From: an uncultured bacterium
Lineage (GTDB): Bacteria > Methylomirabilota > Methylomirabilia > Rokubacteriales > DASRDR01
DNA length: 64,000 bases
NCBI GenBank assembly: GCA_964463175.1
Contig: CAYXBJ010000126.1
Coordinates: 940-64,939, forward strand
Reading direction: 5' to 3'
Shown here: one piece after another, positions 13,234-44,685 of the stretch
Layout: the number at the start of each line of letters is the position of its first letter
Position numbering within the stretch: the first letter of the stretch is position 1
The notes under the pieces: generated by a model
The model's input: only the letters and a program-made list of their open reading frames with translations
Database searches by the model: none
What the model was told of the DNA's origin: nothing
Made by a program: the position numbers and the translations under genes

Positions 13234-13464
13234 GCGAGGAGCGTACTTCAAACTGCCGCGGTCCGGGGCATCAAGCTGGGGGCCCGGGCGCCCGGCTCGG
13301 AAGTGGTCGAGGCAGGCCCGCACTCGCTCGGGTTCGCATAGCCGAGCCTCGTGGGCGGCGCTCATGGGCCGGGACGCGCGTGCCCTGATCCATCACGAAC
13401 CCGATACCCCTCCCGGCCGCGCGGGCCAAGCGGGAACGCCGCGGCCCTCGCGTATACTCGCGAC

Positions 13465-14505: not shown

Positions 14506-14529
14506 GGCCGTAACGCCCGGCGCGGCAGT

Positions 14530-14919: not shown

Positions 14920-15033
14920 CCGTGTTCCTCCTCCCGCGGATCGCGCGACGCGGCTCGAAACGTCTCCAGTATGCACCCGGCTCGGCCGTGCCCCCGCGGC
15001 CGGATCCGCCGAGCGCCGGACGGCCGAGCCCGC

Positions 15034-28665: not shown

Positions 28666-29325
28666 ATGCGCGGCCTTCAGCTCGCCGGCGCGGGCCTTCG
28701 TCCCCTGCGCGTGCTGTGCCTCGGCGCCCACTGTGACGACATCGAGATCGGCTGCGGCGGCACGATTCTCACCATGGCGCGCCAGCATCCCCGTCTGGCC
28801 GTGGAGTGGATCGTGCTGAGCGGCGACGACGAGCGCGCCCGCGAGGCCCAGCGCTCCGCCGACGCGTTCCTGTCAGACGTCGCGGAGCGCCGGCTGACGG
28901 TGGAGCGGTTCCGCGACGGCTACCTCCCCTACCAGGGGGAGCGTCTCAAGGACTACTTCGAGTCCCTCAAGAGGCGGGATGACCCCGACCTCGTCTTCGT
29001 GCCCTACCGGAAAGACTGGCACCAGGACCACCGGTTCATCGCCGAGCTCGCCTGGAGCACGTTTCGGGACCACCTGATCCTGGAATACGAGACGCCGAAG
29101 TACGATCCCGAGCCCGATGCGGCGCCAAACCTCCTGGTGCCGATCGACGACGACGTCGCCGAGGCCAAGGTGCGGCACCTGCTCGACGCCTACCCGTCAC
29201 AGGCGAGCCGGCCGTGGTTCGCCCGCGACGTCTTCCTGGGCGCGCTGCGTCTCCGCGGGATCCAGGCCCGGGTCCGGTTCGCCGAGGCGTTCTACGCGCG
29301 GAAGATGGTCCTGACCGGCCGGTGA
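28666..29325 (+). CDS. PIG-L/LmbE family deacetylase
   Basis: GAHCDDIEIGCGG zinc motif, HQDH, LEYE.PKYD, QASR, AEAF. Confidence 0.9.
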   Translation: MRGLQLAGAGLRPLRVLCLGAHCDDIEIGCGGTILTMARQHPRLAVEWIVLSGDDERAREAQRSADAFLSDVAERRLTVERFRDGYLPYQGERLKDYFESLKRRDDPDLVFVPYRKDWHQDHRFIAELAWSTFRDHLILEYETPKYDPEPDAAPNLLVPIDDDVAEAKVRHLLDAYPSQASRPWFARDVFLGALRLRGIQARVRFAEAFYARKMVLTGR

Positions 29326-29373
29326 CTCGCCTCACCGCGCCCGCGAAGCGAGGTGAGACGCGTGGGAACGCGT

Positions 29374-30210
29374 CTACGCGCCCCGATCGCTGCGCGCCAA
29401 CCCGGGCGGCGCCTCAGTGGGCGTGAGCGGACCCTCGCCGGTCGGGCGCCAAATCTTCCAGGGCGTCCTCTGGGCGGCCTCCATCTCCTGCAGCACCTGC
29501 CAGTCCCTCGGCGTGTCCATGCATGCCCAGAACCCGTCGTGCGCGTGGGCGAAGAGCTGCCGCTCGGATACGAGGCGCGGGAACAGACCGTCGACCAGAT
29601 CCTCACCGGGAGCCAGCCACTCGAAGATCTCGGGCCGGAACACGAAGAAGCCCCCGTTGACCCGGAGGCCGCACTCCGCCGCCGAGCGCACGCTCTCCAC
29701 CAGCCCCCGGCGATCCGCGAGGACGAGATGGTGAGTCGAGGGCGGGCGCACCGTGATCAGGCCGCCCAGCGCGCCGCTCGCCTGGAACCGCGCGATGAAG
29801 GTCGGGAGGTCGAGGTCGGACAGCCCGTCGGCGTAGTTGGCGAGGAACGTCGCTCCATCGAGATACCCCCGAACGGCCCGGAGGCGCTCGCCGATGCTGG
29901 CGTGGAGGCCGGTCGGGACGAGGGTGACGGTCGCTTCGCCGTGGACATCGTGCCGGACCCGTACCCGGCGCACGCCGCCGGTCAGCGACTCCACGGCGAC
30001 AGGGTCCAGGTCCCGCAGGAAATAGTCCGCGATCCGGTGCCCGCCGTGCCCCAGGCACACGACGAACTCTCGGTGCCCGTGGTGCGTGTACCAGCGCATG
30101 AGGTGCGTCAGGATGGGCTGGCCACCGATCGGCACGAGAGGCTTCGGCACGCCGGGGAGAGACGCCTGCAGGCGAATCCCCTGCCCGCCGCAGAACAGGA
30201 CGACCGTCAC
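29374..30210 (-). CDS. rfbF: Glucose-1-phosphate cytidylyltransferase-like nucleotidyltransferase
   Basis: LFCGGQG.RL, PKPLVPIG, NYADGLSD, VNGGFFVF, HDGFW.CMDT.RD. Confidence 0.85.
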   Translation of the reverse strand: MTVVLFCGGQGIRLQASLPGVPKPLVPIGGQPILTHLMRWYTHHGHREFVVCLGHGGHRIADYFLRDLDPVAVESLTGGVRRVRVRHDVHGEATVTLVPTGLHASIGERLRAVRGYLDGATFLANYADGLSDLDLPTFIARFQASGALGGLITVRPPSTHHLVLADRRGLVESVRSAAECGLRVNGGFFVFRPEIFEWLAPGEDLVDGLFPRLVSERQLFAHAHDGFWACMDTPRDWQVLQEMEAAQRTPWKIWRPTGEGPLTPTEAPPGLARSDRGA

Positions 30211-30270
30211 GATGCCGTTCGGCGCCTGGAAGTCACCGCGGATTCAGTCGCGCTCGCCTGGCCGCGACGC

Positions 30271-30801
30271 TCAGCCATGGAAATCCGGGAAAGACCGGTC
30301 GCGGTCGGAGACGAGACGGACGCACTCGGGCCACGGAATGGCGAACGCCGGGTCGTCCCAGCGGACGCCCCGCTCGGCGTCCGCCCGGTAGGACTCCGAC
30401 ATCTGGTACGTGACCTCGGTGCCGTCCAGGAGCGTCTGGAAGCCGTGTGCCATTCCCTCGGGGACGTACAGCATCCGGTAAGATCCCTCGCGGAGCTCCA
30501 CCGCGAAGTGCTGCCGGAAGGTAGGCGAGTGAGGCCGGAGGTCGATGATCACGTCGTGGACGGCGCCACGGACACAGCGCACCAGCTTCGCCTCCTGATG
30601 AGGCGCGCCTCGATAGTGCATCCCGCGCACCGTGCCCCGGTGCTCGGTGAAGGACACGCTGCACTGCACGAGGGCCGGGTTGAGGCCCCGCGCGGCGAAC
30701 TCCTCGCGGCACCACGTGCGCGCGAAGAATCCTCGGACGTCCCGATGCGGCTCGAGCTCCACGGTGAACGCCCCGGTCAGCGGGGTCGGCGTGAACACCA
30801 C
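30271..30801 (-). CDS. rfbC: NDP-4-keto-6-deoxyhexose 3,5-epimerase (RmlC family)
   Basis: DVRGFFART, RGMHY, KLVRC.RG, DLR, GMAHGFQTL, GVRWDDP. Start GTG 30801, 7 nt after TATGCT (the track starts at 30813). Confidence 0.92.
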   Translation of the reverse strand: MVFTPTPLTGAFTVELEPHRDVRGFFARTWCREEFAARGLNPALVQCSVSFTEHRGTVRGMHYRGAPHQEAKLVRCVRGAVHDVIIDLRPHSPTFRQHFAVELREGSYRMLYVPEGMAHGFQTLLDGTEVTYQMSESYRADAERGVRWDDPAFAIPWPECVRLVSDRDRSFPDFHG

Positions 30802-30881
30802 GGCTGCGAGCATACACCGAAGCCCCTCCGCGCGCCGCGAGGTGGACGCGCGCGCGCTGCGGCCGGCTCCGCGGCCGTGCG

Positions 30882-32435
30882 GTGACGGCGATCGGGCCCC
30901 CCGGCGAGCTGAGCGAGCCGCTCTCCGGCCGCACGTGGGAGCCGGCGACGATTCGCCGCCAGTGGCAGCGACGCGCCGCCGTCTATGGAGGCGCCGGCGT
31001 CGGGCGGGGCGACCTGGTTTTCCTGCACCACGGCAACACCCTCGAGTTCTTCGCCGACCTGCTGGCGCTCTGGTCGCTCGGAGCCGCCGCCGCGCCCGTG
31101 GACCCGCGACTCACGGGCTTCGAGATCGAGGCGCTGGCGCGGGCCACGCGGCCGCGGGCGACGCTGTGGCCGTCCCGGCCGCCGGCCGCCGTCGCGGCGA
31201 CGCTCGACGGGCTCGGCGCCGCGATCCTGGCAACGCCCAGGGCTGACGATCTCGGGGACGCTCCCGCTGACGCGGGCCATGCGCTCGAGAGCCTTGCCCC
31301 GGATGCGGATGCGCTCGTTCTGTTCACGTCCGGGACGACGGGCTCGCCGAAGGCCGTGGTCCACACGCACCGGTCGCTCCAGGCTCGGTGGACCGCCCTC
31401 CGGGCGCACGTCGGCCTGGACGACCTCCGTCGCACCCTCTGCCTCCTGCCCACGCACTTCGGCCACGGGCTCATCTGCAACGCCCTCTACCCCTGGCTGG
31501 GCGGGCAGCGCGTGGCTCTGCTCCCGCCCTTCAGATCCGACGTGATCCTCCAGCTCGGCGCCGTCGTGGACGAGCACGAGATCACCTTCCTCTCGTCCGT
31601 GCCGGCGCTCTGGCGGCTCGCCCTTCGCGTCGCCAGAGCGCCGCGCCGCGGGACCCTGAGGCGCGTCATCTGCGGGTCCGCGCCGCTGCCGGCCGTGATG
31701 TGGCGCGACATCGGCGAGTGGACGAGGACGGCGGCCGTGTCCAACGTCTACGGTCTCACCGAAACGGCCAGCTGGGTGGCGGGATCCGCGCCCGGCACCG
31801 CGCCGGAGGACGGCCTCATCGGCCATCCGTGGGGCGCGACGGTGCGAATCGGCGCCGAGCCGCCGACAGCCGCCGATGATCCGCGCGGCCGCGAGGCGGG
31901 AGCGCCCGATCAGGTGGGGCTCGTCTGGCTCCAGACGCCCGCGCTCATGCGCGGCTATCTCGGGCGCGACGATCTCACCGCCGACACGGTTCGACACGGG
32001 TGGTTCAGGACCGGCGACCTCGGATGCCTGGATTCCACGGGACGCCTCCATCTCCGGGGGCGAGAGCGAGATGAAATCAACCGCGGCGGGCTCAAGGTGT
32101 ACCCGTCGGACATCGAGGCCGTGGTGGAGCAGTTCGATGGCGCGCTCGACAGCTGCGCCTTCGGCTACGCGGGCGAGACCGGGGGCGACGAGGTGGCGCT
32201 CGCCGTCGTGCTGCGCGCCACCGACGTCGCCACGCTGCGCCGTCTCCACGCCTGGGTCCGGGAACGCCTGGCCGCGTACCAGCTGCCGCGGCGCTGGTTC
32301 GTCGTCGACGAGATCCCGCGCACCTCCCTCGGCAAGCCCCGGCGCGCCCAGATGGCGGCGCGCTGCGCGGATCTCCGGGCCGTGGATCCTCGCGATCTCG
32401 AGATGGACCACAGCGGAGGGCCGTGTGGCGCCTGA
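30882..32435 (+). CDS. AMP-forming acyl-CoA/acyl-ACP ligase
   Basis: FTSGTTGSPK, NVYGLTE, FRTGDLG, INRGG.KVYP..IE, TSLGK. Followed directly by an ACP. Confidence 0.9.
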   Translation: MTAIGPPGELSEPLSGRTWEPATIRRQWQRRAAVYGGAGVGRGDLVFLHHGNTLEFFADLLALWSLGAAAAPVDPRLTGFEIEALARATRPRATLWPSRPPAAVAATLDGLGAAILATPRADDLGDAPADAGHALESLAPDADALVLFTSGTTGSPKAVVHTHRSLQARWTALRAHVGLDDLRRTLCLLPTHFGHGLICNALYPWLGGQRVALLPPFRSDVILQLGAVVDEHEITFLSSVPALWRLALRVARAPRRGTLRRVICGSAPLPAVMWRDIGEWTRTAAVSNVYGLTETASWVAGSAPGTAPEDGLIGHPWGATVRIGAEPPTAADDPRGREAGAPDQVGLVWLQTPALMRGYLGRDDLTADTVRHGWFRTGDLGCLDSTGRLHLRGRERDEINRGGLKVYPSDIEAVVEQFDGALDSCAFGYAGETGGDEVALAVVLRATDVATLRRLHAWVRERLAAYQLPRRWFVVDEIPRTSLGKPRRAQMAARCADLRAVDPRDLEMDHSGGPCGA

Positions 32436-32724
32436 TCGGGCGGCGCTCCTGCGAGACCTCCGCGGGCTCATCACCCGGAGCACGCCGAGCCTGACCGGGA
32501 TCCTCGGGGACAATGCCCTGCTGATCAGCTCCGGCGTACTGGAGTCGGCGACGCTGGTCGACGTGGCCCTGTGGGTCGAGGACCACGTCGGCACGGAGAT
32601 CGATCTGGGAGCGTTCGATCTGGCCACCGAATGGGACTCGCTCAACGCGATCGTGGACTTCGTCGAGCGACGCACCGGACGGGCGGCACGATCGGCGGCC
32701 GAGGGCGCGTCCGACCGTGTATGA
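32425..32724 (+). CDS. Stand-alone acyl carrier protein
   Basis: LISSGVLESATLVDVALWVEDHVG.EI four-helix carrier pattern, Ser at 32545 (LES instead of the usual LDS), WDSLNAIVDFV. Overlaps the ligase stop. Confidence 0.8.
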   Translation: MAPDRAALLRDLRGLITRSTPSLTGILGDNALLISSGVLESATLVDVALWVEDHVGTEIDLGAFDLATEWDSLNAIVDFVERRTGRAARSAAEGASDRV

Positions 32725-33820
32725 GGTCGTGCCGTATCGTCGCGAATTCCGCGCCCAGGTCACCACGCTCCAGCACCATCTGTGGCGTGGCGGCCGGACC
32801 CGGAACACGGCGTATCTGGCGTGGAAGTACGAGCAGAACCCGTACCTGCCCGATCCCCTCATCTATCTGGCTCTCTATCGAGGACGTGTCGTGGGCATGC
32901 GCGGCGCCTTCGGATCGTGCTGGGAGGCCGGCCCGGATCGCCTCGTCGTGCCGTGCGCGGACGACTTCGTCATCGCGCCGGCACACCGCCAGCGCGGCCT
33001 GGTCGGACAGATCATGAGCGCGACGCTCGCCGATCTGGCCGCGCGGGGCCATCGCGTGGCGTTCAGTCTCAGCGCAGGTCCCGCCACGCTCGCGGGCTCC
33101 CTGGTCGGCGGGTGGAGATCCGTCGGCTCCGTCCGAGAGGTCTGCCGGGGCGGGCCGCCCCGCGCAGGCGTCCGGCGTCAGGCGAGCCGCGTGATCGCGT
33201 GGCTCGCGAGCCGCGGCTGGGACGGCGGCGTCGCCCGCCTCTGGCAGCGACCGTTCCGACGGCTTGATCGCGCCGCGCCACGCACGCCGTCCGGCGCCGT
33301 CTGGTGTGCCGCCGCGCCACGCCCCGAGGCAATGGCGGACGTCGTGGCCCGACAGTCCTACGACGGCCGGATCCGTCACGTGCGCGACGCGCGGTATCTC
33401 GCCTGGCGATTCGCGAATCCGCTCCACGAGTACCGCTTCCTCTTCGCGGGGGCGGACCGGCTCGCGGGCTACCTGGCTCTGCAGGCGTACCGGCCGTTCC
33501 CCGATCGGGGCGTCAACATCGTGGACTGGGAGGCGAGTGACCCCGCCGTCCGGCGCGATCTCCTCCGCGCGGCCATCGACTGGGGTGGCTTCGGCCAGCT
33601 GAGCCTGTGGTCCATGAGCCTCGATGCCGACACCCGAAGGCTGGTGGAGCACGCCGGCTTCGTGCCGGCCGCCCGCGAGCGCCTGGTCCGTCAAGGCCCG
33701 GCCCTCCTCGTGCGCGTGATCGGAAGCCCCCCGGACCGGGGCGCGCCCACGCTCGGCGCGCGGCCCCTCCTGGATCCAGGCGCGTGGGACCTGCGCATGC
33801 TCTACTCCATGGCGGGCTGA
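32717..33820 (+). CDS. GNAT-family acyltransferase (tandem GNAT, FemAB/Acetyltransf_6-like)
   Basis: [23 protein letters not shown] acyl-CoA motif A, second domain YLAWRF.NP..EY. Overlaps the ACP. Confidence 0.8.
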
Positions 33821-33824
33821 GCCT

Positions 33825-34907
33825 ATGGGTTCCACTCCGCGCCGACCGGGCCGCCTGCTCGTCACTGGCCATCGCGGCTACATCGGGGCCGTGCTGGTGC
33901 CCATGCTGGAGAGCCTCGGTCACGAGGTGGTCGGCGTCGATTCGGAGCTATACCGCGGCTGCGACTTCAGACCCGTCGCCGCGGACCGGATCCCGATGCT
34001 CGCGGCCGACGTGCGCGATCTCCGCGCGGCGGATCTCGGCGGCGTCGAGGGCGTCATCCATCTGGCCGCCCTCTCCAACGATCCCCTGGGCGATCTCGAT
34101 CCCGCGGTGACCGACGAGATCAACCGCGCCGCCTCGGTGCGCCTGGCCCGGCTGGCCCGCGACGCCGGGGTCGCCCGCTATCTCTTCTCGTCGTCCTGCA
34201 GCAACTACGGGGCGGCCGGCGACACGCCGCTGGACGAGGACGGCCCTCTTCGGCCACTCACGCCCTACGCGATCTCCAAGGTCCAGGTGGAGCGCGAGGT
34301 CGCCGAGCTCGCCGACGCGGGGTTCAGTCCGACCTTCCTCAGGAACGCGACCGCCTACGGGGTCTCCCCGCGGCTCCGCCTGGATCTGGTCGTCAACGAT
34401 CTGACCGCCTGGGCCACGGTCACCGGACGCGTGCGCGTGCTCAGCGACGGCACGCCCTGGCGGCCGCTCGTCCACGTCGAGGACATCGCGCGCGCCTTCG
34501 TCGCGATCCTCTCGGCTCCTCGCGCGGCAGTCCACAACCAGGCGTTCAACGTGGGCCCTCCGGGCGAGAACTATCGGGTCCGCGACCTGGCGGAGATGGT
34601 CCGGAGCGAGGTGGCCGGCTCCGAGATCGAGTACGCGCCCGGCGGCGGGCCGGATCCCCGGAGCTATCGCGTCGACTTCGGGCGGATGGCCCGCGCCGTC
34701 CCGGACTTCGCGCCGCGGTGGACGGTGCGGGACGGCATCGCCCAGCTCGTCCGCGCTTTCCGGCACGCGGACCTCACCGCGGACGACCTCGAGTCCCCGC
34801 GCTACCGGCGGGTCCGCCGGGTGCGGCAGCTCCTGACCGACGGGACGCTGGACGCCCGTCTCCGCCGGCGTCATCCCGCACCGGCGACCTCGGGGGGCGC
34901 GCCGTGA
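33825..34907 (+). CDS. NAD-dependent epimerase/dehydratase (extended SDR)
   Basis: [50 protein letters not shown]. Confidence 0.92.
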
Positions 34908-36160
34908 GCGCGACGACGGCGACGAGCAACGGCGGCGCCTGCCGCTTCTGCCGCGAGCCGCTGCGCCACACGCTCGTCGACCTGGGGGTCTCGCCGCTCT
35001 GCGAGTCCTTCGTCTCGCCGGGGGGGCTCAACGCGATGGAGCCCTTCTACCCGCTGCACGCCTACGTCTGTCATGGCTGCTGGCTCGTCCAGGTCCACGA
35101 GTACGTGCGCCCCGAGACCATCTTCACGGAGTACGCGTACTTCTCGTCCTACTCGGACTCCTGGCTTGCCCACGCCGCCGCCTACGTCGACCGGATCGTG
35201 TCGCGACTCGGGCTCGGGCCGCAGAGCCTGGTGATCGAGGTCGGCAGCAACGACGGATACCTGCTCCAGTACGTCGTCGCCCGCGGCATCCCGGCGCTGG
35301 GCGTCGAGCCGGCGCGGAACGTGGCCGCCGCCGCGATCGTGCGGGGCGTGACGACGATCACCGAGATGTTCGGGCGGCGGCTCGCCGAGACGCTGGTCGC
35401 CGAGGGACGGCGGGCGGACCTCCTGATCGGCAACAACGTGCTCGCCCAGGCGCCCGATCTCGACGACTTCGTCGGGGGCCTGGCCCTCGTGCTGGCCCCC
35501 ACCGGCGTCCTCACGCTGGAGTTCCCGCACCTCCTGCGCCTTCTCGAGGAAACCCAGTTCGACACCATCTACCACGAGCACTTCTCGTACTTCTCCCTGG
35601 GGACCGCGGCGCGGATCCTCCGCGCCCACGGGCTCGAGGTGTTCGACGTCGAGGAGCTCCCGACCCACGGAGGCTCGCTGCGCCTGTACGTCCAGCGCGC
35701 CGGGCTGGGAAGCCGTCCCGTCACGGACCCCGTGACGGCCCTGCTCGAGCGGGAGAAGGCCACGGGGCTCGAGGGGCTCGCGCCGTACGCCCGGTTCCAG
35801 GCTCAAGTCCGGGAGGCCAAGCTCGCGCTGCTCGAGTTCCTCATCGGCGCGCGACGGGCCGGGAAGCGGGTGGCCGGCTACGGGGCGCCCGGCAAGGGCA
35901 ACACCCTCCTGAACTACTGCGGGATCGGCAGCGATCTCGTCGAGTACACGGTGGATCGCAATCCTTACAAGCACGGGAAGTTCCTCCCGGGGAGCCGGAT
36001 CCCGATCTTCGCGCCCGATCACGTCATGGCGACGCGACCCGATTACCTCCTCATTCTCCCGTGGAACCTGCGGGCCGAGATCATGGCGCAGATGGCCGGG
36101 ATCCGCGCCTGGGGCGGACGCTTCGTGATCCCGATTCCCCGCGCGACCGTCTACCCATGA
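34904..36160 (+). CDS. NDP-hexose C-methyltransferase (Zn-binding, TcaB9/NovU-type)
   Basis: CRFC...CHGC zinc ligands, EVGSNDG SAM motif, [28 protein letters not shown]. Confidence 0.93.
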
Positions 36161-37440
36161 CGGGGAGCGTCGGCGCGGAGCTGCACCGCTGGATCCGGGA
36201 TCTCTACCCGATCGGGCGGAGCCTGACCGGGGACGGCGTCCGGGAAACGCTCCGCCGGCTCGGCGAGCTCCTTCCCCTCACGGTGCGCGAGGTGCCGTCG
36301 GGAACGCCGGTCCTCGACTGGACCGTGCCCTCCGAGTGGAACCTGCGGGACGCGTGGATCGAGAACTCCCGGGGCGAGCGCGTCGTCGACGCGCGCCGCT
36401 CGACGCTTCACGTGGTCGGCTACAGCCGGCCGGTGCGCGCGCGTCTCAGCCTGGCCGAGCTCCGGCCGCACCTGTTCTCGCTGCCCGCGCATCCCGACTG
36501 GATCCCTTACCGCACCTCGTACTACGCGGACGGCTGGGGGTTCTGCCTGAGCGAGCGACAGCTCGCCGCGCTTACCGACGACCGGTACGAGGTCTGCATC
36601 GACGCGACACTCCAGCCCGGTAGCCTCACCTACGGCGAGTGCGAGCTCCCGGGCGAGATCGGGGACGAGGTCCTCGTCTCGACGCACGTGTGCCATCCGT
36701 CCCTGTGCAACGACAACCTCTCGGGCATCGTGATCGCCGCGTTCCTCGGGCAGCGCCTGGCGGCCCGACGGCGGCGCCACACCTACCGCCTCCTGTTCGT
36801 CCCCGGCACCATCGGGTCCATCACGTGGCTCGCGCTGAACGAGTCCCGGCTCGACCGGATCGCGCACGGCCTGGTGCTGACCTGCCTCGGCGACGGCGGA
36901 TCGCCCACCTACAAGCGGAGCCGGCGGGGTGATGCGGCGATCGACCGGGCCGCCGCGCACGTGCTCGGCGCGCGAGGGCCCCATCAGGTCCTCGAGTTCA
37001 CCCCGTGGGGCTACGACGAGCGCCAGTACTGCTCGCCCGGGTTCGATCTGCCGGTCGGCTGCCTGATGCGCACGCCCCACGGGCAGTTCGCGGAGTACCA
37101 CACCTCCGCCGACGATCTCGACTTCGTGCAGCCGGAGGCCCTCGCAGACTCCCTCGAAGTCGCGACGGCCATCCTCGACCTGGTCGACCGGAACCGGGTC
37201 CTCGTGAACCGCCAGCCGAAGGGCGAGCCTCAGCTCGGCCGCCGCGGCCTCTATCCCGCGGTGGGCGGAGGGCCCCAGCGAGCCGAGCAGCTCGCCCTCC
37301 TGTGGGTCCTCAATCTGTCCGACGGACGGCACAGCCTGCTGGACATCGCCGAGCGCGCGGGAATTCCGTTCGATGCCGTCGACCGGGCCGCGGGCGCGCT
37401 CCTCGCGCACGGTCTTCTCGGCGAACGGCCCTCCGCGTGA
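36157..37440 (+). CDS. DUF4910/DUF2172 aminopeptidase(M28)-like protein with C-terminal wHTH
   Basis: RSLTGDGVR.TL, VP.EWN, HVVGYS, PY.TSYY, HVCHPSLCNDNLSG, PGTIGSI, DERQYCSPGFDLP, EYHTS.D, PQLGRRGLY. Confidence 0.9.
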   Translation: MTGSVGAELHRWIRDLYPIGRSLTGDGVRETLRRLGELLPLTVREVPSGTPVLDWTVPSEWNLRDAWIENSRGERVVDARRSTLHVVGYSRPVRARLSLAELRPHLFSLPAHPDWIPYRTSYYADGWGFCLSERQLAALTDDRYEVCIDATLQPGSLTYGECELPGEIGDEVLVSTHVCHPSLCNDNLSGIVIAAFLGQRLAARRRRHTYRLLFVPGTIGSITWLALNESRLDRIAHGLVLTCLGDGGSPTYKRSRRGDAAIDRAAAHVLGARGPHQVLEFTPWGYDERQYCSPGFDLPVGCLMRTPHGQFAEYHTSADDLDFVQPEALADSLEVATAILDLVDRNRVLVNRQPKGEPQLGRRGLYPAVGGGPQRAEQLALLWVLNLSDGRHSLLDIAERAGIPFDAVDRAAGALLAHGLLGERPSA

Positions 37441-37479
37441 CGAGAGGGCGCGCCCGCCGGCGGGAGGCGGGGGCGCGCG

Positions 37480-40134
37480 TCAGGAGATCGCGGTCCCGTC
37501 CAGGCAGCGCATGATCATCGCGGCCGACGCCGTCGTCTCGCGCGTGAGGCACGTGATGTGGGTGCCCGGGACCACGTGCACATCGACCCGAGGCGCAACG
37601 GACCGCCACCACGCGGCCGCGTCGTCCGCGGGGATCGGGTCCTCCGCGGGCCAGAGGAGCGTCACCGGCCCGCCATAGGGACGCGGGACGTACTCCGCGT
37701 CGATCCGGAGATAGTCGGCTCGCAAGCGCTCGCGGAGCCGCTCCGACTCGGCCTCGGGGCCCGTCTCCGCGGCGGCGGCGTTCGATCTTCGTCGCCACGG
37801 CATGCGACGCGCGCCCCGGCGCATCCCATCCCGGAGGACGCGCAGCCGGTCCCGCGGCGGGGTCGCGCGGAGCCGGAGGAATCCGTCCCGCAGCACGGCG
37901 AACAGATCCGCCTCGCGCGCCGGCCCCCCGCCAGCCAGCGCGCACGCGCCGCCCACGATCCGCCGGAGCCAGCCGAATCCGACTCCGATCGGGAGCGCGG
38001 CCACCACAAGCACGCGCTCGACCTCCCCGCCGGTCGCCGCGAGGAGGCGCGCGGTCTCGAGGGCCACCAGTCCGCCGTTGCAGAGACCCCCCAGCCGGTA
38101 CGGACCCTGCGGGCGCGCCCGAAGGATGTCCCCCAGGTGTCGCGTGGCCATGGCCTCGTAGGTCGGCGGGGTCGGGCTCCCATCGGCGCCGCAGGGCGGG
38201 AGCGCCAGGAACGGCTGGTCCGCTCCCAGGCGGCGCGCGAGGTTCTGGCAGTAGAGGCCCCCGCTCAGGTAGTCGCCGTGCAGGAAGAAGAGCGGCGTCC
38301 GACCCCCCGCCGGCTGGACCGGCACGAGCGTGTGGCGCGGAAGGCCGGCCTCGCGCTGCACCTCGTCGGCGAGCCGCCGGATCGTCGGGCTCCCGAGGAC
38401 GGCCGAGGCCGCGATGCCGCGCCCCAGCAACGCCTCGGCCTCCTGGAGCATCTCGACGCAGAGCAGCGAGTCGCCACCCAGGTCGAAGAAGTCGTCGAGC
38501 ATGCCGATCGGGCGCACGTGCAGGATCTCCGCCCAGAGGCTCGCGAGCTGGGCCTCGAGCAGCGAGCGTGGCGCGACCAGCGGCACGTCGAGGGATGGCC
38601 GGTGGCCACCCGGCGCGGGGAGCGCGCGCCGATCGAGCTTTCCGTTGGCGGTGAGCGGGAGGGCGTCGAGCAGCACGTAGGTCTCGGGAACCGCGAAGGC
38701 CGGCAGGCGCGCGGCCAGACGACGCCGCAGGGCGGAGACGGTGGGAGCCGGGCGCGTCGACGGGACGACGTAGGCCACGAGCGTCGGCTCGCCGTCCCGC
38801 TCCACCGGAGCCACTGCGGCCAGCTCCACGCCGTCGAGCTCGAGGAGCGCGCGCTCGACGTCCGCGACGGCCACACGATGTCCGTGGATCTTCGTCGCCG
38901 CGTCGACGCGCCCCAGGTGCTCGAGGCCACCGTCGGACCGGAGCCGGCCGAGGTCACCGGTGCGGTAGAGGCGCCGGCTCGGGTCGCGCGGATCGGGCGA
39001 GAACGCCGTGGCCGTGGCGTCCTCGCGGTGCCAGTACCCGACCGCGAGGTACCGGCTGCTGACGACGATCTCCCCCACCTCCCCCACCCCGCACGGCGCG
39101 GCGTCGGCCGCGAGGACCCGCACGTCCATGTCCTCGACCGCGTATCCTACGGGCACGACCCCGGCGGGCACGGGCGTCAGGGCGCCGACGAAGAACTGCC
39201 GGACGAGACCGCACTCCGTGGCGCCCAGTCCGTTCACCAGGCGCGCGTGAGAGGCAAATCGCTCCCGGTAGAGCTCGAGGTCGCGGACCGACGCCCGGTC
39301 ACCCTCGAGGCGGATGAGCCGCAGGGCGGGAAGCGCGACCCGGCTCGTCGCCACGCGACGGAACAGCGCGGGCACCGAGTGATAGATGGTGATCGCGCGC
39401 TCCCGGAGCCACGGCGCGATCGTCACGGCGCCCTCGCGCGTCACGTCCAGCGGGAACACGGCCGCGCCGTTCAAAAGAGCCCCGAAGAGGCTCGAGACGG
39501 CCCCGCTGAAGCTTGGCCCCTGGAGGAGAGTCAATCGGTCCTCGGCGGCGATCTCCAGGCTGTTCGTGTAACGCATGACGTTATGGAGGACGTTGCGATG
39601 GGCGTCGACGACGCCCTTCGGCCGTCCGGTGGAGCCCGACGTGTAGTAGATGTAGGCTCGCGCATCGGGGGCGATGGGAAGGGCGAGGTCCTCGTCGGAC
39701 GCGCTCCCGACCCGATCGAGGTCGAGCACCGGCACGGTTGGCGGGGTGACGGCGGCCGCCGTCCTCCCGGCGCGCGCATCCGCCAGGACTAGCCCCGCCC
39801 GGGTGTCCTGGACGAGGTCGGCGAGCTGCGCTTCCGGGTCCGCGGGGTCGAGTGGCGCGTAGAACTTCCCGGCCTTTAGAACCCCGAGGATCGCCGCGAC
39901 GAGCGGAGCGCCCTGGTTGACCAGGAGCGCGACAGGCTCCGGCTCCGTTCCCCGCGCGTCGACGATCGCGCGGGCGACGCGATTCGCCATGCGGTTGAGC
40001 GTCTCGTAGGACCAGGCATGCTCTCGGGTCGCGACCGCCAGTCGGCCCGGACCGCGGCGCACCTGCGCCTCGAAGCGGCGCGGGATGGACTGCTCGATGG
40101 CTTCCCGGCCGAACCGGACGAACGACGGCGCCAT
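37480..40134 (-). CDS. Stand-alone NRPS-like enzyme A-T-TE (no condensation domain)
   Basis: YTSGSTGRPKG, YRTGD, NGKLDR adenylation motifs. DFFDLGGDSL carrier (Ser codon 38467-38469). Thioesterase GPYRLGGLCNGG and distal His (PGTH). Confidence 0.92.
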   Translation of the reverse strand: MAPSFVRFGREAIEQSIPRRFEAQVRRGPGRLAVATREHAWSYETLNRMANRVARAIVDARGTEPEPVALLVNQGAPLVAAILGVLKAGKFYAPLDPADPEAQLADLVQDTRAGLVLADARAGRTAAAVTPPTVPVLDLDRVGSASDEDLALPIAPDARAYIYYTSGSTGRPKGVVDAHRNVLHNVMRYTNSLEIAAEDRLTLLQGPSFSGAVSSLFGALLNGAAVFPLDVTREGAVTIAPWLRERAITIYHSVPALFRRVATSRVALPALRLIRLEGDRASVRDLELYRERFASHARLVNGLGATECGLVRQFFVGALTPVPAGVVPVGYAVEDMDVRVLAADAAPCGVGEVGEIVVSSRYLAVGYWHREDATATAFSPDPRDPSRRLYRTGDLGRLRSDGGLEHLGRVDAATKIHGHRVAVADVERALLELDGVELAAVAPVERDGEPTLVAYVVPSTRPAPTVSALRRRLAARLPAFAVPETYVLLDALPLTANGKLDRRALPAPGGHRPSLDVPLVAPRSLLEAQLASLWAEILHVRPIGMLDDFFDLGGDSLLCVEMLQEAEALLGRGIAASAVLGSPTIRRLADEVQREAGLPRHTLVPVQPAGGRTPLFFLHGDYLSGGLYCQNLARRLGADQPFLALPPCGADGSPTPPTYEAMATRHLGDILRARPQGPYRLGGLCNGGLVALETARLLAATGGEVERVLVVAALPIGVGFGWLRRIVGGACALAGGGPAREADLFAVLRDGFLRLRATPPRDRLRVLRDGMRRGARRMPWRRRSNAAAAETGPEAESERLRERLRADYLRIDAEYVPRPYGGPVTLLWPAEDPIPADDAAAWWRSVAPRVDVHVVPGTHITCLTRETTASAAMIMRCLDGTAIS

Positions 40135-40171
40135 CAGCGGGCGACGCCGCGGTGACCGACGGCAGGGACGG

Positions 40172-40918
40172 TCACCGCCGGCCCACGAGACCCAGGCTGC
40201 GCTTCACGATGCGGTAGCCACCGTCACGCTCGATCCGTGACCGAAAGAGCGCCGCTGCCTCCGCGCGCCGGTCTTCCCGGCAATACGGGGCGCAGGCGTC
40301 GTAGTAGCGCATCACGGCCTCGAGCGTCGGGAGGTGGATCGTGCTCCAGAAGGTTGAGCACGCGACGCACCGGAACGTGTCGAGGAACGCCGGGAGAATG
40401 ACGCCCCGGCCCGCGCCCGGCACGTCGAGCACGTCGGCGGACAGCGGGTAGAGTCGTCCGAGGTCCTCGAACCAGCCGGCGTTGTTCCCGATGTCCGGCG
40501 TCACCACCACGAACCGAGCGCCGGCGCCGTCGAGCAGCCGACTGACCGCCGCGACCACGTGCGCCGGCCGGGCCGAGTAGTAGAGCGAGTACACGGCGTA
40601 GACGAGCGTGAAGGGGCCCGGCAGCCGGAGGTCGGCGAGGTCGTCCATGTCGCCGACGACGACCTCGGCGTTCGATCCGGGGAGCTGCGTCTCGAGGGCG
40701 CCGGCCATCTCGGCTGACGTGTCGAGGCCCACGATGCGCCGGACCGCGCCAGCAAGCGGGATCATCTGGCGTCCGAGGCCGGGCCCGATGTCCAGGACCA
40801 CGTCGCCCGCCACCGGCTCGAGCAGTTGGAGGATGAACTGGTCGAAGTCCGCCGATGCCGCGCGGTTGCACGCTGTCCGCTCGCTCAGCCGCTCCGGCGT
40901 GTTGATCCGGTTCAGCAC
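40172..40918 (-). CDS. Class I SAM-dependent methyltransferase
   Basis: VLDIGPGLG, GLDTS, VGDMDD, VYSLYY. Start uncertain. Confidence 0.82.
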   Translation of the reverse strand: MLNRINTPERLSERTACNRAASADFDQFILQLLEPVAGDVVLDIGPGLGRQMIPLAGAVRRIVGLDTSAEMAGALETQLPGSNAEVVVGDMDDLADLRLPGPFTLVYAVYSLYYSARPAHVVAAVSRLLDGAGARFVVVTPDIGNNAGWFEDLGRLYPLSADVLDVPGAGRGVILPAFLDTFRCVACSTFWSTIHLPTLEAVMRYYDACAPYCREDRRAEAAALFRSRIERDGGYRIVKRSLGLVGRR

Positions 40919-40958
40919 GTGGAATCCCGAAGTCCTCGGCGCGCCTCGTCCGGCGGGA

Positions 40959-41888
40959 TCAAGCGCCGGCGTGCGCCCGCCGGTACCAGGCGATCGTGTC
41001 CACGAGGCCCTCCTCCAGCATGACCCGCGGCGTCCATCCGGTGAGCCGCGTGGCGCCTTCGACGTCGGCCATGACGGCACGCTCGAGCGGCCGGTCGGGC
41101 AAGGCCCCCCACCGCGGAGCGACGGCCACACCCATCAGCCCGAAGATCCGCTCCACCACCTCGCGGATCGTCAGCAGGCGCCCCGAGCCCAGCTCGACCG
41201 TCAGGCCCTCGAGGCCCGGCGACGCGGCCACCGCCTCGAGACCACGGGCGACGTCCGCGATGTGGATCCAGTCCACGGCGCGGGCGCCGCTCGAGAGCGG
41301 CGGGGACTCGCCCCGGAGCAGCGAGGTGATCACGAACGGAACCAGCTTGGTCGTGTCCCGCTGGCCCGGCCCGTACACCATCGACAGCCGCGCGATGACG
41401 ACGGGAACCCCGTAGAGCGCGTGGTACATCCGCGCCACGGCGCTGCCCGCCCACTTGGCCGCGGCGTACGGCGACGACGGGGTCGCGATCGCCGGCTCGC
41501 CGGCCCCCGGCTCCTCCATCGAGCCCGCGATCACGAGACGCTGGCATCCCTCGCGCGCCAGCGCCGTGACGACGTGGACAGTCTGCGCCAGGTTCTCCAG
41601 CACGAGCGAGTCGGCGTGATCGAGCTGCCGATCGCCCGTCACCCGGCCCCCAAGGTGAATGACCCACTCCGGCCGCACGGCTCGCACGAGACGAAGGACC
41701 GACTCGGCATCGGTGAGGTCCACCAGATGGGGCTCGACGTGGGCCGGGCCAGTGCCCCGCCCGCCCGGCCGGAGCACCCCGTGCACTCGATGCCCCGCTT
41801 CCGCGAGGCGTGTGGCGAGATGGTATCCGATGAACCCGGCCGCGCCGGTGATCAGGACGCGACGAAGCGAGGAGGCCGTCAGCGCCAT
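40959..41888 (-). CDS. NAD-dependent epimerase/4-ketoreductase (CDP-abequose/paratose synthase-like SDR)
   Basis: ITGAAGFIG, SPYAAAK, VYGPGQ, DWIHI.DV, LEEGL..TI.WY. Confidence 0.88.
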   Translation of the reverse strand: MALTASSLRRVLITGAAGFIGYHLATRLAEAGHRVHGVLRPGGRGTGPAHVEPHLVDLTDAESVLRLVRAVRPEWVIHLGGRVTGDRQLDHADSLVLENLAQTVHVVTALAREGCQRLVIAGSMEEPGAGEPAIATPSSPYAAAKWAGSAVARMYHALYGVPVVIARLSMVYGPGQRDTTKLVPFVITSLLRGESPPLSSGARAVDWIHIADVARGLEAVAASPGLEGLTVELGSGRLLTIREVVERIFGLMGVAVAPRWGALPDRPLERAVMADVEGATRLTGWTPRVMLEEGLVDTIAWYRRAHAGA

Positions 41889-42901
41889 GGTCGGTACCGC
41901 CAGTATGCGCGCGCGCAGGCCGCAAGGGGCGCGTCGACTCCCAGCGCCTGGGCCCAGGAGACGGTCCGGAACCATCCGCGGCGCCGGAGGCGCGATGCCG
42001 CGGCCGGGCTGAGTCGGTCGAGAGAGGCCAGGATCGCCTGGAGCTCGCTCGGGCCGAGCCTCCCCGTGCTCGCGGCGACGTCCACCAGCGTGAACAGGAT
42101 CACGACGCGGTAGCGCTGCTCGAGAAAGGTCGGGGCATGCGCGCGCCACACCTCGCGCACATCGGCGTGGCTGCGGCCGAGTTCCTCCACGAAGCCCGCG
42201 AATTGCTCGACTCCCGTGATCGCCCCGCGCCACGGCTGTGTGTAGAACACGCTCCGGCGCTGCAGCCGGTACGAGAACGCCTCGTCGGGCGCGGCTGCCT
42301 TCCACCGGCCCGGGCCGTCCAGAAGCGTGAGCCACAAGGCGTCGTCGGCGTGGGTCAGGCCCTCGAAAGCCGGGATGCCGCCCACGGCGTCATACGCCGA
42401 GGAGCGCATCACGACGCCCACCACGGTCATGTCCCTTCGATTGGTCAGCCGAGCCTGCAGGAGCTCCGCCGCCGTCTCACGAGCGGCGATGGGTCGGCAC
42501 GGTCGCACGAGTCGTCCACCCTCGTCGACCAGGCGGTGATGGGTCGTATACAGCGTCGCCTCCGGGCATCGCCGGATCAGATCGTCGACGATCGCGAGGT
42601 AGTCGCGATCCAGCCGGTCGTCGTGGGTGACGAACAGCATGAACTCGCCCCGCTCTGACGCCCTCACCCGTCGGAAGTTCTCCTCGATCGTCAGCTTGCG
42701 ACGCTCGGACCGAACGCGGACCCTCGGGTCGCGGACCGTCCCCAGCCATTCGGCGGAGCCGTCCGTGCTGGCGTTCTCGAGAATCTCGAAGGCGAAGTCG
42801 TCGTGCGACTGGGCGAGGACGCTGTCGACGAGCTCCCGGATGTAGTCGCCGCCGTTGTGGACGGGGAGCACGATCGTGAACCGCGGCAACCGAGGGCTCA
42901 T
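41879..42901 (-). CDS. Glycosyltransferase family 2
   Basis: IVLPVHNG, ENASTDGS, THDD (DxD-like), ADDALW. Confidence 0.9.
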   Translation of the reverse strand: MSPRLPRFTIVLPVHNGGDYIRELVDSVLAQSHDDFAFEILENASTDGSAEWLGTVRDPRVRVRSERRKLTIEENFRRVRASERGEFMLFVTHDDRLDRDYLAIVDDLIRRCPEATLYTTHHRLVDEGGRLVRPCRPIAARETAAELLQARLTNRRDMTVVGVVMRSSAYDAVGGIPAFEGLTHADDALWLTLLDGPGRWKAAAPDEAFSYRLQRRSVFYTQPWRGAITGVEQFAGFVEELGRSHADVREVWRAHAPTFLEQRYRVVILFTLVDVAASTGRLGPSELQAILASLDRLSPAAASRLRRRGWFRTVSWAQALGVDAPLAACARAYWRYRPWR

Positions 42902-43122
42902 GCCGGGCAGGTCCAGCGCGCGCCCGCCGTGACGCACACACCTGCGAGCCGGCAGGACGAGGCGGCCCGGAGGTCACGAGCGGAGTCAGCCAGATCGAAG
43001 CCGATCCCCACGATCAGGCTGACACGTTAGGGGCGGACGGTCAGTGGAGTCAAGGTCGCAGCCGCAGGTCCCTTGACGGAGCCTCACGGGTCAGAAAGGA
43101 TCGGCCAGGAGCGAGGTCGACC

Positions 43123-44685
43123 GTGTTCACCGATGGCCGGACGCTGCCTGACGCCGACACCCTGACGGCGGATCTCTGCGTCGTGGGCGCCGGCGCCGCG
43201 GGGCTCACCCTGGCGCTCGACCTCGCGGACTCTCCGGTCCGGGTGCTCGTGCTGGAGCAGGGCGGAGCGACCCGAGACGAGGGCGGCGACGGGCTCTATC
43301 GCATCGTCCGCGGGCCGCGGCCACGGCTCGTGCGTGACGCCGGGCGCATCTGGCACGTCGGCGGTAGCACCAACTACTGGTTCGGAAACTGCCGGCCTCT
43401 CGACACGGGTGACTTCGGGCGCCGTGACTGGATCCCGGAGAGCGGCTGGCCGATCCGCCGCGACGAGCTCGCGCCTTTCTACGCTCGCGCCCAGCAGCTT
43501 TGCGGCCTCGGCGACTTCCGTCTGTACGATGTCGACGCCTGTCGCCCGCATCTCCTTCATCCTCCGCTCGACATCGGGTCCCCGATTCTCGTCCACCGTG
43601 TCGTGCAGACCTGCCCCGAACCGCGCCTCGTCGTCCTGCATGGCCGGCGCCTCCGGGATGCCGCCAATATCCAGGTCGCCACGGGCGCGCGGGTGACCCA
43701 AGTGGAGACGAACCCACGCGGAGACGAGGTGACCTCGGTCCACGGCGTCATGCATGGTGGGCGGCAATTCCGCGCGACGGCGCGCGCGTTCATCCTGGCG
43801 ACCGGAGGGATCGAGAACCCGCGGCTCCTGCTCGGGTCACGCGGCGCCAACCCCGCCGGGCTCGGGAACCGCCACGATCTCGTCGGCCGGTTCTTCATGG
43901 AACACGTTCACGTGGATCTCCCGGTCGGCGCCTGGAGTGACGGCCAGGATCTCCGCTTCTACACGACCCGACAGCCGGTCGAAACGGCGATGGTCGGGGG
44001 GCAGCTGTCGCTATCCGAAGACTTCATGCGTGCGGAGCGGGTCCCGGGACAGGCACTGTGGTTCTGGCCAGCCTCAGTCCGCGGAGAGGCGGCGGCCGCC
44101 GCGATAAGGGTCAAGCGACTGCTGCTGGGACGGTCGCGGCTCGATGCGCCGGCCGAGGATCTGCGGGCCGTGCTCGCGGCGCCCGGCGAGATCATGCGCC
44201 TGGCGTGGCGCAGCGTGGCCCGACGGACCGCGGCTGGGCGGAGCACCTCCGTACTCCGAGTCCTGCTGGAACAGACGCCGGAATCTCGGAACCGGGTCCT
44301 TCTCTCGACGGCCTGCGATCGAGCCGGTCAGCCGCAAGCCGAGCTCAGGATCTCCTGGACCGACGAGGAGATGCAGCGCCAGGCCGGTTCGCTCGAGATG
44401 GCCGCCGACGCGATCGGCCTCGATGGCCGACGGCTGGCGACCACGATGCGCGCGATGCTTCGCAGCGGACAGTGTGGCTATCTCTGGCACCACACCGGCT
44501 CCACGCGTATGCGAGAGGATCCCCGGGAGGGCGTGGTCGACGCGGACTGTCGGGTGCACGGCGTCTCGAACCTCTTCATCGCCGGCAGCTCCGTCTTCCC
44601 CACCGGAGGGACAGCCGGGCCGACGCTGACGATCGTCGCGCTCGCGCTCAGGCTGGCGGCGCACCTCCGGCTCCGTTACGGATGA
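43123..44685 (+). CDS. GMC-family FAD-dependent oxidoreductase
   Basis: VVGAGAAG, VGGSTNYW, LATGGIENPRLLL, VGRFFMEH, HHTGSTRM, NLFIAGSSVFPT.G...PTLTI.ALA.RLA. Confidence 0.92.
   Translation: MFTDGRTLPDADTLTADLCVVGAGAAGLTLALDLADSPVRVLVLEQGGATRDEGGDGLYRIVRGPRPRLVRDAGRIWHVGGSTNYWFGNCRPLDTGDFGRRDWIPESGWPIRRDELAPFYARAQQLCGLGDFRLYDVDACRPHLLHPPLDIGSPILVHRVVQTCPEPRLVVLHGRRLRDAANIQVATGARVTQVETNPRGDEVTSVHGVMHGGRQFRATARAFILATGGIENPRLLLGSRGANPAGLGNRHDLVGRFFMEHVHVDLPVGAWSDGQDLRFYTTRQPVETAMVGGQLSLSEDFMRAERVPGQALWFWPASVRGEAAAAAIRVKRLLLGRSRLDAPAEDLRAVLAAPGEIMRLAWRSVARRTAAGRSTSVLRVLLEQTPESRNRVLLSTACDRAGQPQAELRISWTDEEMQRQAGSLEMAADAIGLDGRRLATTMRAMLRSGQCGYLWHHTGSTRMREDPREGVVDADCRVHGVSNLFIAGSSVFPTGGTAGPTLTIVALALRLAAHLRLRYG

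Follow-up and report, generated by a model that had tools for sequence, protein, structure and literature searches.

The locus examined here raises the question of whether sugar-nucleotide enzymes and carrier-protein acylation enzymes that lie interleaved in one gene block act on a single product, and where such a product would go. The block occupies positions 28666 to 44685 of a 64,000-nucleotide stretch of DNA (hereafter the window; contig CAYXBJ010000126.1, assembly GCA_964463175.1) from an uncultured member of the Rokubacteriales, phylum Methylomirabilota. A first-pass annotation had proposed that it makes a C-methylated sugar bearing two different acyl groups and destined for the cell surface. 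An acylated C-methyl surface sugar is plausible and partly supported by the analysis below. Our own reading, to which we give about an even chance, is that the locus is a composite envelope-glycan tailoring cluster built from three modules that also exist separately: a sugar core, a triad of ligase, carrier protein and GNAT acyltransferase, and an adenylation-thiolation-thioesterase (A-T-TE) protein.

Because the window is 72% G+C, raw lists of open reading frames (ORFs) are full of shadow frames, and genes were therefore called by third-position G+C (GC3) frame analysis combined with Pfam and NCBIfam scans. Long forward-strand ORFs such as 29353-30885 and 31876-32724 were rejected by GC3 as shadow frames, the true genes being on the reverse strand or shorter. 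Fourteen real genes map between 28666 and 44685, which upholds the earlier inventory of 14 genes, although the genes are not a single co-linear run: both strands are used, in approximately five transcription units. The genes for the ligase, carrier, GNAT, a first extended short-chain dehydrogenase/reductase (SDR1), a C-methyltransferase and a DUF4910 protein form one operon, because their start and stop codons overlap or abut (overlaps of 11 nt between ligase and carrier, 8 nt between carrier and GNAT, and 4 nt at both the SDR1/C-methyltransferase and C-methyltransferase/DUF4910 junctions, with a 4 nt gap between GNAT and SDR1). A second operon on the opposite strand encodes a GT2 glycosyltransferase, a second extended SDR (SDR2), a methyltransferase (MT) and, as its last gene, the A-T-TE protein. 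A promoter and terminator scan was uninformative in window DNA of this G+C content. As the first-pass annotation had stated, no condensation (C), ketosynthase (KS), Wzx/Wzy, transporter or exporter domain was detected inside the block by domain scans.

The ligase-carrier-GNAT triad and its sugar-gene neighbours

The triad begins with an ANL-superfamily acyl-AMP ligase (30882-32435, + strand, 517 aa; AMP-binding and AMP-binding_C domains), which among solved structures is closest to oxalate-CoA ligase, FadD13 and malonyl-CoA synthetase and not to amino-acid adenylation domains. The next gene encodes a stand-alone 99 aa protein (32425-32724, +) that has no Pfam or NCBIfam match, and none in Pfam even at E<=10. 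Orthologues of this protein were recovered from related loci in 53 cases, mostly with a canonical G-x-L-D-S-L motif, and a profile of 34 orthologues matches type-II peptidyl carrier proteins (PCPs) and DltC/D-alanyl carrier proteins with E=3e-6 to 1e-4. The predicted phosphopantetheine site, Ser41 (32545-32547, motif GVLES), is invariant in all 34. Judged by this profile, the 99 aa protein is a predicted carrier protein, closer to PCP/DltC than to fatty-acid acyl carrier proteins (ACPs). The phosphopantetheine site reads L-E-S in the window and in seven related loci (L001-L006, L008; L numbers denote related loci throughout) and L-D-S in the other orthologues.

The third gene encodes a tandem-GNAT acyltransferase (32717-33820, +, 367 aa) with weak Acetyltransf_9/17 matches and, in a sequence search of the PDB, marginal matches to Eis2 and MshD (E=0.03-0.75). 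Its AlphaFold2 (AF2) model (pLDDT 85) resembles Eis, the clavulanate tandem GNAT 2wpx and N-myristoyltransferase in Foldseek (TM 0.5-0.6, E ~1e-11, identity 10-16%), and the R-x-R-G pantetheine-pyrophosphate loop is conserved. These relatives, like MshD, share the two-GNAT-domain fold but use acyl-CoA, whereas the family considered here is tied genetically to a carrier, and at least seven times physically: in L038, L047, L050, L052, L059, L062 and L066 carrier and GNAT are fused into a single protein of 468-491 aa, an architecture that supports a putative direct hand-over of the acyl group.

More than 355 homologues of the GNAT were found, nearly all of them metagenomic, and a scan of one genome per GTDB species returned 189 relatives. 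The best 80 of these 189 all derive from uncultured metagenome-assembled genomes (MAGs) in more than 10 phyla, including Acidobacteriota, Gemmatimonadota, Binatia, Chloroflexota, Myxococcota, Latescibacteria, Planctomycetota and several proteobacterial groups, and the closest among them belong to Rokubacteria/Methylomirabilota (73% identity). A tblastn matrix of window proteins against 81 GNAT-anchored loci found a ligase orthologue in 51 loci, in 50 of which it immediately precedes the GNAT gene in the same orientation; a carrier is present in 52, and ligase and carrier together in 45. The triad is a coherent, autonomous unit, and its sequence features and gene linkage support a genuine carrier-dependent acyl-transfer unit. 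The ligase-ACP-GNAT system named in the first-pass annotation is borne out as to its composition by this linkage and by the fusions; the 'ACP', however, has no family match of its own and owes its assignment to the orthologue profile.

Two or more sugar-core genes accompany the GNAT in 10 of the 81 loci. The gene order of the window recurs, at 55-87% protein identity, in three related loci with complete synteny (L001-L003) and in a fourth (L169), so the arrangement is not due to chance. The core appears in at least four other gene orders in L009, L012, L014, L027, L030, L034, L052 and L084, bringing the pairing of core and triad to at least five gene orders in several phyla, and in a rough neighbour-joining tree the GNATs that accompany a core occupy at least four distinct positions. 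When ORFs surrounding the GNAT genes were clustered and shadow ORFs removed, the only neighbours conserved across phyla were sugar genes: GT2 (16 loci), extended SDR (15), PIG-L deacetylase (9-10), C-methyltransferase (9-10), sugar-1-phosphate nucleotidylyltransferase (NTase; 7) and RmlC (5). The remaining neighbours reflect lineage-specific synteny only. A functional link between GNAT and sugar is rescued by these cross-phylum neighbours and by the occurrence of A-T-TE genes beside the GNAT in three clades (described below), and we regard it as partly supported.

Several cluster genes in the related loci (C-methyltransferase, DUF4910, GMC oxidoreductase, PIG-L and RmlC) are split by frameshifts, at 12529-14743 and 17773-19349 in L001 and at 2800-7173 in L009; these are more likely assembly errors than pseudogenes.

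A predicted C-methyl sugar core

The enzymes of the core are individually recognisable, and their sequences support a coherent C-methyl deoxyhexose pathway, in agreement with the first-pass annotation. The strongest assignment is that of the Zn-dependent NDP-hexose C-methyltransferase (34904-36160, +, 418 aa), which has Methyltransf_13 and Methyltransf_14 domains, with an N-terminal Zn domain (PF08421, E=4e-23), an S-adenosylmethionine (SAM) domain (PF13489, E=9e-13) and a C-terminal Methyltransf_14 domain (PF08484, E=5e-65). It scores 300 bits against MtmC (4rv9, the D-mycarose 3-C-methyltransferase), 257 against KijD1 (5t64) and 220 against TcaB9, with ~410 residues aligned in each case. This domain layout and full-length similarity identify it, by sequence, as a member of the TylC3/MtmC/TcaB9 family, whose members methylate NDP-4-keto-hexoses at C-3 or C-5; by analogy with its nearest relatives it probably acts at C-3.

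The NTase (29374-30210, -, 278 aa) is glucose-1-phosphate cytidylyltransferase-like, matching TIGR02623 over its full length at 162 bits against an equivalog cut-off of 300, and its nearest solved relative is 1tzf, the Salmonella CDP-glucose synthase (glucose-1-phosphate cytidylyltransferase; E=3e-38). The earlier label of RfbF-like cytidylyltransferase agrees with this nearest structure, but the score is well short of the equivalog and we put forward cytidine diphosphate (CDP)-glucose as the likely product. RmlC, an NDP-4-keto-6-deoxyhexose 3,5-epimerase (30271-30813, -, 180 aa; PF00908, E=2e-60), narrowly misses its own equivalog (TIGR01221, 148.8 bits, cut-off 155.75). The CDP-glucose 4,6-dehydratase equivalog TIGR02622 gives only 22-31 bits for either SDR. 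SDR1 (33825-34907, +, 360 aa; PF01370, E=5e-45), for which GalE is the best NCBIfam match at 92 bits, resembles a GalE-like epimerase or a 4-ketoreductase; its motif reads SSSCSNYG and the dehydratase Asp-Glu pair is absent from the sequence. It travels with the sugar core in related loci. SDR2 (40959-41888, -, 309 aa) is 4,6-dehydratase-like, with dTDP-glucose 4,6-dehydratase as its best NCBIfam match (104 bits, below cut-off), and is found in a subset only of core loci.

The core also includes a PIG-L/LmbE-family deacetylase (28666-29325, +, 219 aa; PF02585, E=5e-14) and a metallopeptidase-like DUF4910/DUF2172/HTH_47 protein (36157-37440, +, 427 aa; Pfam E=6e-109). The latter matches the CA_C2195 structure 3k9t with E=2e-136, conserves the zinc-site residues CHPS...NDN...YHTSAD, and has the three-domain architecture and His/Asp/His zinc site of its family. 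The GT2 (41879-42901, -, 340 aa; PF00535, E=1e-11) has chondroitin synthase and other glycan GT2s as nearest solved relatives, not ArnC/GtrB, and GT2 genes are the commonest neighbours both of the GNAT family and of the core (20 loci for the latter). A class I SAM methyltransferase (MT; 40172-40918, -, 248 aa; Methyltransf_25/11), predicted to carry out O- or N-methylation, has orthologues in L001-L003, L009 and L054. The block closes with a GMC-family FAD oxidoreductase (43123-44685, +, 520 aa; GMC_oxred_C, E=3e-23), homologues of which adjoin the GNAT in L004/L082 and L063.

A DUF4910 profile search of JGI metagenomes returned at least 600 matches, of which the best 80 (57-67% identity) were compared; 35 of these core loci are 10 kb or longer and 11 have full 10-kb flanks. 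Across the 80, genes for NTase, SDR1, RmlC, C-methyltransferase, DUF4910 and often PIG-L travel together, and the PIG-L gene accompanies the core in 18 of the 35 long loci as well as in 10 of the 81 GNAT-anchored loci. Other recurrent neighbours are GT2, a ~307 aa protein, a short-chain dehydrogenase, Wzm, Wzt (Wzt_C), Bac_transf, a polysaccharide deacetylase and Wzx, with Wzm/Wzt present in 9 of the 35 long loci. The core is very common in soil metagenomes as a module of O-antigen/capsule-type loci, where it works without carrier-protein partners. The placement of homologous cores among Wzm/Wzt, Wzx and Bac_transf genes lends weight to the surface destination proposed in the first-pass annotation.

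The ~307 aa protein lies directly after the DUF4910 gene in 17 of the 80 core loci (L097, L101, L125, L145, L151 and others) and has a weak 2OG-Fe(II) oxygenase match; it is absent from the window.

The core has evident parallels among characterised systems. With the MtmC/TylC3, KijD1 and TcaB9 pathways it shares a Zn two-domain C-methyltransferase accompanied by an NTase, an RmlC-type epimerase and extended SDRs; it differs in that its NTase is cytidylyltransferase-like, not dTDP- or GDP-forming, that genes for a 2,3-dehydratase and an aminotransferase are missing, and that it has PIG-L and DUF4910 as constant partners, for which the characterised C-methyl sugar pathways offer no equivalent. 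CDP-vinelose of Azotobacter vinelandii is the product of another C-methyl branched-sugar pathway. A C-methyl branched sugar also occurs in a surface glycan, as virenose of Coxiella burnetii (PMC3539893). Linkage of the CA_C2195/DUF4910 family to genes for epimerases/dehydratases, NTases, glycosyltransferases and methylases has been described, with ACP and acyltransferase genes as variable companions (Das et al. 2014, PMC4000134). The Clostridium CA_C2195 locus of that study is a nonulosonic-acid/flagellin-type island whose ACP and acyltransferases differ from those of the window, and neither a fixed core of six genes that includes C-methyltransferase, RmlC and PIG-L nor a tandem-GNAT triad is described there.

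The A-T-TE protein and an adjoining GT-C enzyme

The A-T-TE protein (37480-40134, -, 884 aa; domains assigned by Pfam) resembles a nonribosomal peptide synthetase (NRPS). Its A domain is of true NRPS type, with ObiF1, a Cys-thioesterase NRPS, among the sequence matches. It consists of A, T and TE only, so that the C domain of a peptide-forming NRPS is missing from the protein, as it is from the block. The specificity code, which we mapped by hand onto what we take to be the GrsA motif positions, is S-G-S-H-R-E-G-L-V-K (family form S-G-S-H-R-E-G-(I/L)-V-K) and fits no assignable substrate. By the same mapping, the Asp235 expected for an alpha-amino-acid substrate is lacking, Ser occupying its position in all 116 homologues compared (44-100% identity). 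The thioesterase nucleophile is Cys (GLCNGG), and both code and Cys are invariant in the 116. Architecture without a C domain and a Cys nucleophile are features shared with ObiF1 and NRPS-like A-T-TE proteins; unlike ObiF1-type NRPSs, this family has phosphopantetheinyl transferase (PPTase), tandem-GNAT and GT2 genes as partners.

An orthologue stands at the same position in L002 (71%) and L169 (80%). In L063 and L057 a divergently oriented A-T-TE gene lies beside a GNAT-family gene where ligase and carrier are absent and glycosyltransferase, SDR, phosphodiesterase and GMC genes are present. In L171 the genes run A-T-TE, PPTase, a DUF6298-like lipoprotein, GNAT (sharing 51% identity with that of the window), GT2, MT (59% identical to that of the window) and GT2; L170 is laid out likewise except that its GNAT is frameshifted, and L087 retains a GNAT remnant. 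The GNATs beside A-T-TE fall in three separate clades. From this gene linkage we regard the A-T-TE protein as a candidate second, optional donor module for the same GNAT transferase family. The first-pass proposal of two different acyl groups on the sugar is one that we can at most infer; the GNAT is the only candidate transferase.

One alternative concerns this gene only, and is otherwise compatible with a composite glycan-tailoring cluster: A-T-TE may act autonomously, dimerising or cyclising a 2-oxo or hydroxy acid, as a recent insertion without a glycan role, and leave decoration to the triad alone. The invariant code without Asp235, together with the Cys thioesterase, would fit one fixed non-amino-acid substrate and an unusual release; the usual partner of the family is just an Sfp-type PPTase; and among the syntenic clusters only the window, L002 and L169 have A-T-TE. 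Against this, A-T-TE genes neighbour tandem GNATs of three separate clades, in two cases with no other possible donor present, and in the window the A-T-TE gene ends the operon that begins with GT2, SDR2 and MT. We consider autonomous action possible but doubtful.

Two loci from an assembly labelled Nitrosotalea sp. (L007 and L087; GCA_035519555.1) carry Rokubacteria-like bacterial genes, with a GNAT at 51% and an A-T-TE at 58% identity; this thaumarchaeon-labelled MAG with bacterial genes looks like a case of mis-binning.

The conserved syntenic unit probably runs on past the GMC gene to 48818. A PaaK/CapK-like adenylate-forming ligase (44740-46044, -, 434 aa; TIGR02155, 530 bits, cut-off 646) lies outside the originally reported interval and is of uncertain membership. 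It and a 900 aa protein (46116-48818, -) adjoin the cluster in L001, L003 and L169, and L169 has a co-directional run of GT-C, PaaK, SDR2, MT and A-T-TE. The PaaK/CapK-like ligase is 84-89% identical among these loci, the highest conservation near the cluster, and could either serve the system as a third enzyme for acid activation or be an ordinary housekeeping protein.

The 900 aa protein combines a polytopic membrane region of ~470 aa, seen by hydropathy, with two C-terminal CBM32/discoidin (F5/8 type C) domains. The membrane half has no Pfam, NCBIfam or PDB match by sequence, and a first homologue search with it gave 7 matches; 8 of 10 remote homologues match PF13231 (PMT_2), four of them above the gathering score, while the window protein itself does not. 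Its AF2 model (pLDDT 94) is most similar in Foldseek to ArnT (5f15/5ezm, TM 0.63-0.64), followed by STT3, PglB, AglB and PMT. The predicted fold places the N-terminal half among the GT-C enzymes, which use polyprenyl-phosphate sugars as donors and act outside the membrane. The fold of ArnT extends over the N-terminal 470 aa; in contrast to ArnT, the protein has its two CBM32 domains, and we identified neither an ArnC-like GT2 nor a flippase nor an ArnD partner. Because this GT-C enzyme adjoins the cluster, an envelope destination is supported, again in line with the first-pass annotation. The possibility that the GT2 of the block supplies the GT-C, acting as a polyprenyl-phosphate sugar synthase of the ArnC/GtrB type, was considered and found no support: that GT2 lacks a membrane anchor, and glycan GT2s are the solved structures closest to it.

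Joint action or independent modules

In a composite envelope-glycan tailoring cluster, the first module (NTase, SDR2, RmlC, C-methyltransferase, SDR1, PIG-L, DUF4910, GT2 and MT) would supply a nucleotide-activated, probably CDP-linked, 6-deoxy-C-methyl-hexose. The NTase would activate a hexose-1-phosphate, the 4,6-dehydratase-type SDR would generate a 4-keto-6-deoxy intermediate, RmlC would epimerise this intermediate, the Zn methyltransferase would add the branch methyl and the second SDR would reduce C-4. In the triad, the ligase would adenylate a small non-amino carboxylic acid and load it onto Ser41 of the carrier, from whose phosphopantetheine arm the soluble tandem GNAT would pass the acyl group to the sugar or glycan, at an amine or a hydroxyl. 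A-T-TE, with its Cys thioesterase and without the alpha-amino-binding Asp, would be a second, optional acyl donor for the same GNAT family. The GT2 would build the decorated sugar into a glycan, and the ArnT-like GT-C/CBM32 protein would be the probable last transferase outside the membrane.

Such a system would follow a familiar logic. DltABCD carries out D-alanylation of teichoic acids, and AlmEFG adds glycine to Vibrio lipid A. As in these systems, in which the acyl group ends on an envelope glycopolymer, an adenylating ligase in the window is adjacent to a small stand-alone carrier that it would load, the two genes overlapping as described above. DltA activates an amino acid, whereas the ligase of the window is nearest to oxalate, malonate and fatty-acid ligases; and no membrane acyltransferase of the Dlt/Alm type (MBOAT DltB, LPLAT AlmG) was found in the block, the third gene encoding a soluble tandem GNAT. 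Dlt/AlmEFG-like logic, C-methyl sugar pathways and the sugar neighbourhood of DUF4910 are thus known already, and the locus is built from familiar enzyme families. It differs in the use of a tandem GNAT as carrier-dependent transferase, the alternative pairing of this GNAT with a Cys-thioesterase A-T-TE, and the fixed six-gene core. Searches of sequence databases and the literature, which did not cover MIBiG or antiSMASH, found no characterised homologue or named biosynthetic gene cluster, and literature on vinelose, on tandem GNATs with a carrier protein and on Rokubacteria gene clusters held no characterised counterpart.

We would tentatively extend this reading beyond the window, although we hold the broader version for distinctly less probable than the composite cluster itself. 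In that version, triads are a widespread class of carrier-dependent glycan acyltransferase systems in uncultured soil phyla, with A-T-TE(Cys) as an interchangeable or additional donor; in Rokubacteria both would converge on a CDP-type C-methyl deoxyhexose that needs DUF4910 and PIG-L, and the ArnT-like GT-C would place the doubly decorated sugar on the envelope.

These conclusions must be tempered by a number of observations that weigh against a single acylated product. None of the 80 core loci, including the 35 of 10 kb or longer, carries the triad or A-T-TE, so the core does not need the acyl modules. Conversely, in ~40 of the 51 triad loci sugar genes could not be recognised within 10 kb, and the usual acceptor of the triad may therefore not be a C-methyl sugar; a Pfam scan of 116 proteins flanking triad-only loci found 5 GT2 and 2 Wzx but no dominant family, although in one such locus Wzx, phosphodiesterase, GT2 and GMC genes adjoin the triad. 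Most A-T-TE homologues examined (48-58% identity) also lie in unrelated contexts, followed by an Sfp-type PPTase alone, and A-T-TE is missing from the otherwise syntenic L001 and L003. The carrier of the window has E-S in place of the canonical D-S and misses the Pfam model, and no PPTase was found in the window by tblastn with the Sfp-type PPTases of L171 and L086. Because no aminotransferase is present that would create an N-acetyl substrate, PIG-L is left without an obvious amino-sugar substrate, even though PIG-L and DUF4910 are constant members of the core. The route to the GT-C is incomplete, because the soluble GT2 does not resemble ArnC/GtrB and no flippase was seen. The genes scanned over the 64-kb window include no flippase or exporter (Wzx/Wzy, Wzm/Wzt) and no priming phosphoglycosyltransferase; genes of these kinds are present in related core-only loci.

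Several of these observations would be expected if the locus were instead an assemblage of independent modules in a shared variable island, the core making an unacylated C-methyl sugar while the triad and A-T-TE use another, widely available acceptor (such as a lipid, small amine, peptide or protein N-terminus) or release a small N-acyl product. In favour of such independence are the lack of acyl modules in the 80 core loci, the unrelated housekeeping contexts of most triad loci and several A-T-TE loci, the loss of A-T-TE from two syntenic clusters, and the closest GNAT folds, Eis and N-myristoyltransferase, which acylate proteins or small amines. It does not readily account for the single overlapping operon that joins the triad to three core genes in the window, for the recurrence of core-triad pairing in different gene orders and phyla, for sugar genes being the sole neighbours of the GNAT family conserved across phyla, or for the A-T-TE/GNAT loci that also carry GT2, SDR and methyltransferase genes. 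On balance we think independence unlikely, if only slightly more so than autonomous action of A-T-TE. The first-pass annotation had expected its reading to fail if homologous sugar cores lacked the acyl-carrier genes and those genes occurred in unrelated contexts. What we find goes half way: seen from the core the acyl modules are absent, yet seen from the GNAT there is enrichment for GT2 and core; and the acyl modules do lie mostly elsewhere, but with a core in 10 of the 81 GNAT loci and A-T-TE beside the GNAT in three clades.

That the product is a soluble specialised metabolite and not a surface glycan is improbable; examples would be an acyl-sugar, an acylated sugar nucleotide or the A-T-TE product in glycosidic form. 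In favour of this reading, the window lacks the export and priming genes listed above, all 14 proteins are predicted by hydropathy to be soluble, and both a GMC oxidoreductase and an NRPS-like protein ending in a Cys thioesterase belong to the typical repertoire of natural-product tailoring. Against it, homologues of the core lie elsewhere within export loci of O-antigen type, the conserved neighbour is an ArnT-fold GT-C with carbohydrate-binding modules, and there is no scaffold-forming enzyme (C, KS, terpene or ribosomal-peptide type).

Were the composite tailoring cluster confirmed, it would provide a first function for a tandem-GNAT/carrier system present in at least 189 species-level genomes, and a functional context for DUF4910, whose structure has been solved but whose function has been lacking since 2014. 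It would also tie an NRPS-like family to glycan decoration and not to peptide synthesis, and give a partial account of envelope chemistry in Rokubacteria, Acidobacteriota and Gemmatimonadota, groups dominant in soil yet biochemically almost unknown. If the modules prove independent, the value of the locus shrinks to that of a catalogue of three conserved gene sets.

The genes flanking the cluster are housekeeping genes, among them an Opp-type transporter, threonine dehydratase and cytochrome oxidase. Two further ORFs, 14971-17262 (+, 763 aa) and 8199-9200 (+, 333 aa), have a strong coding signal but no Pfam match. The ORF at 3678-7010 (+), whose N-terminal 320 aa are without a match and whose true start probably lies later, contains both COX1 and COX3 domains and looks like a fusion of subunits I and III of cytochrome oxidase.

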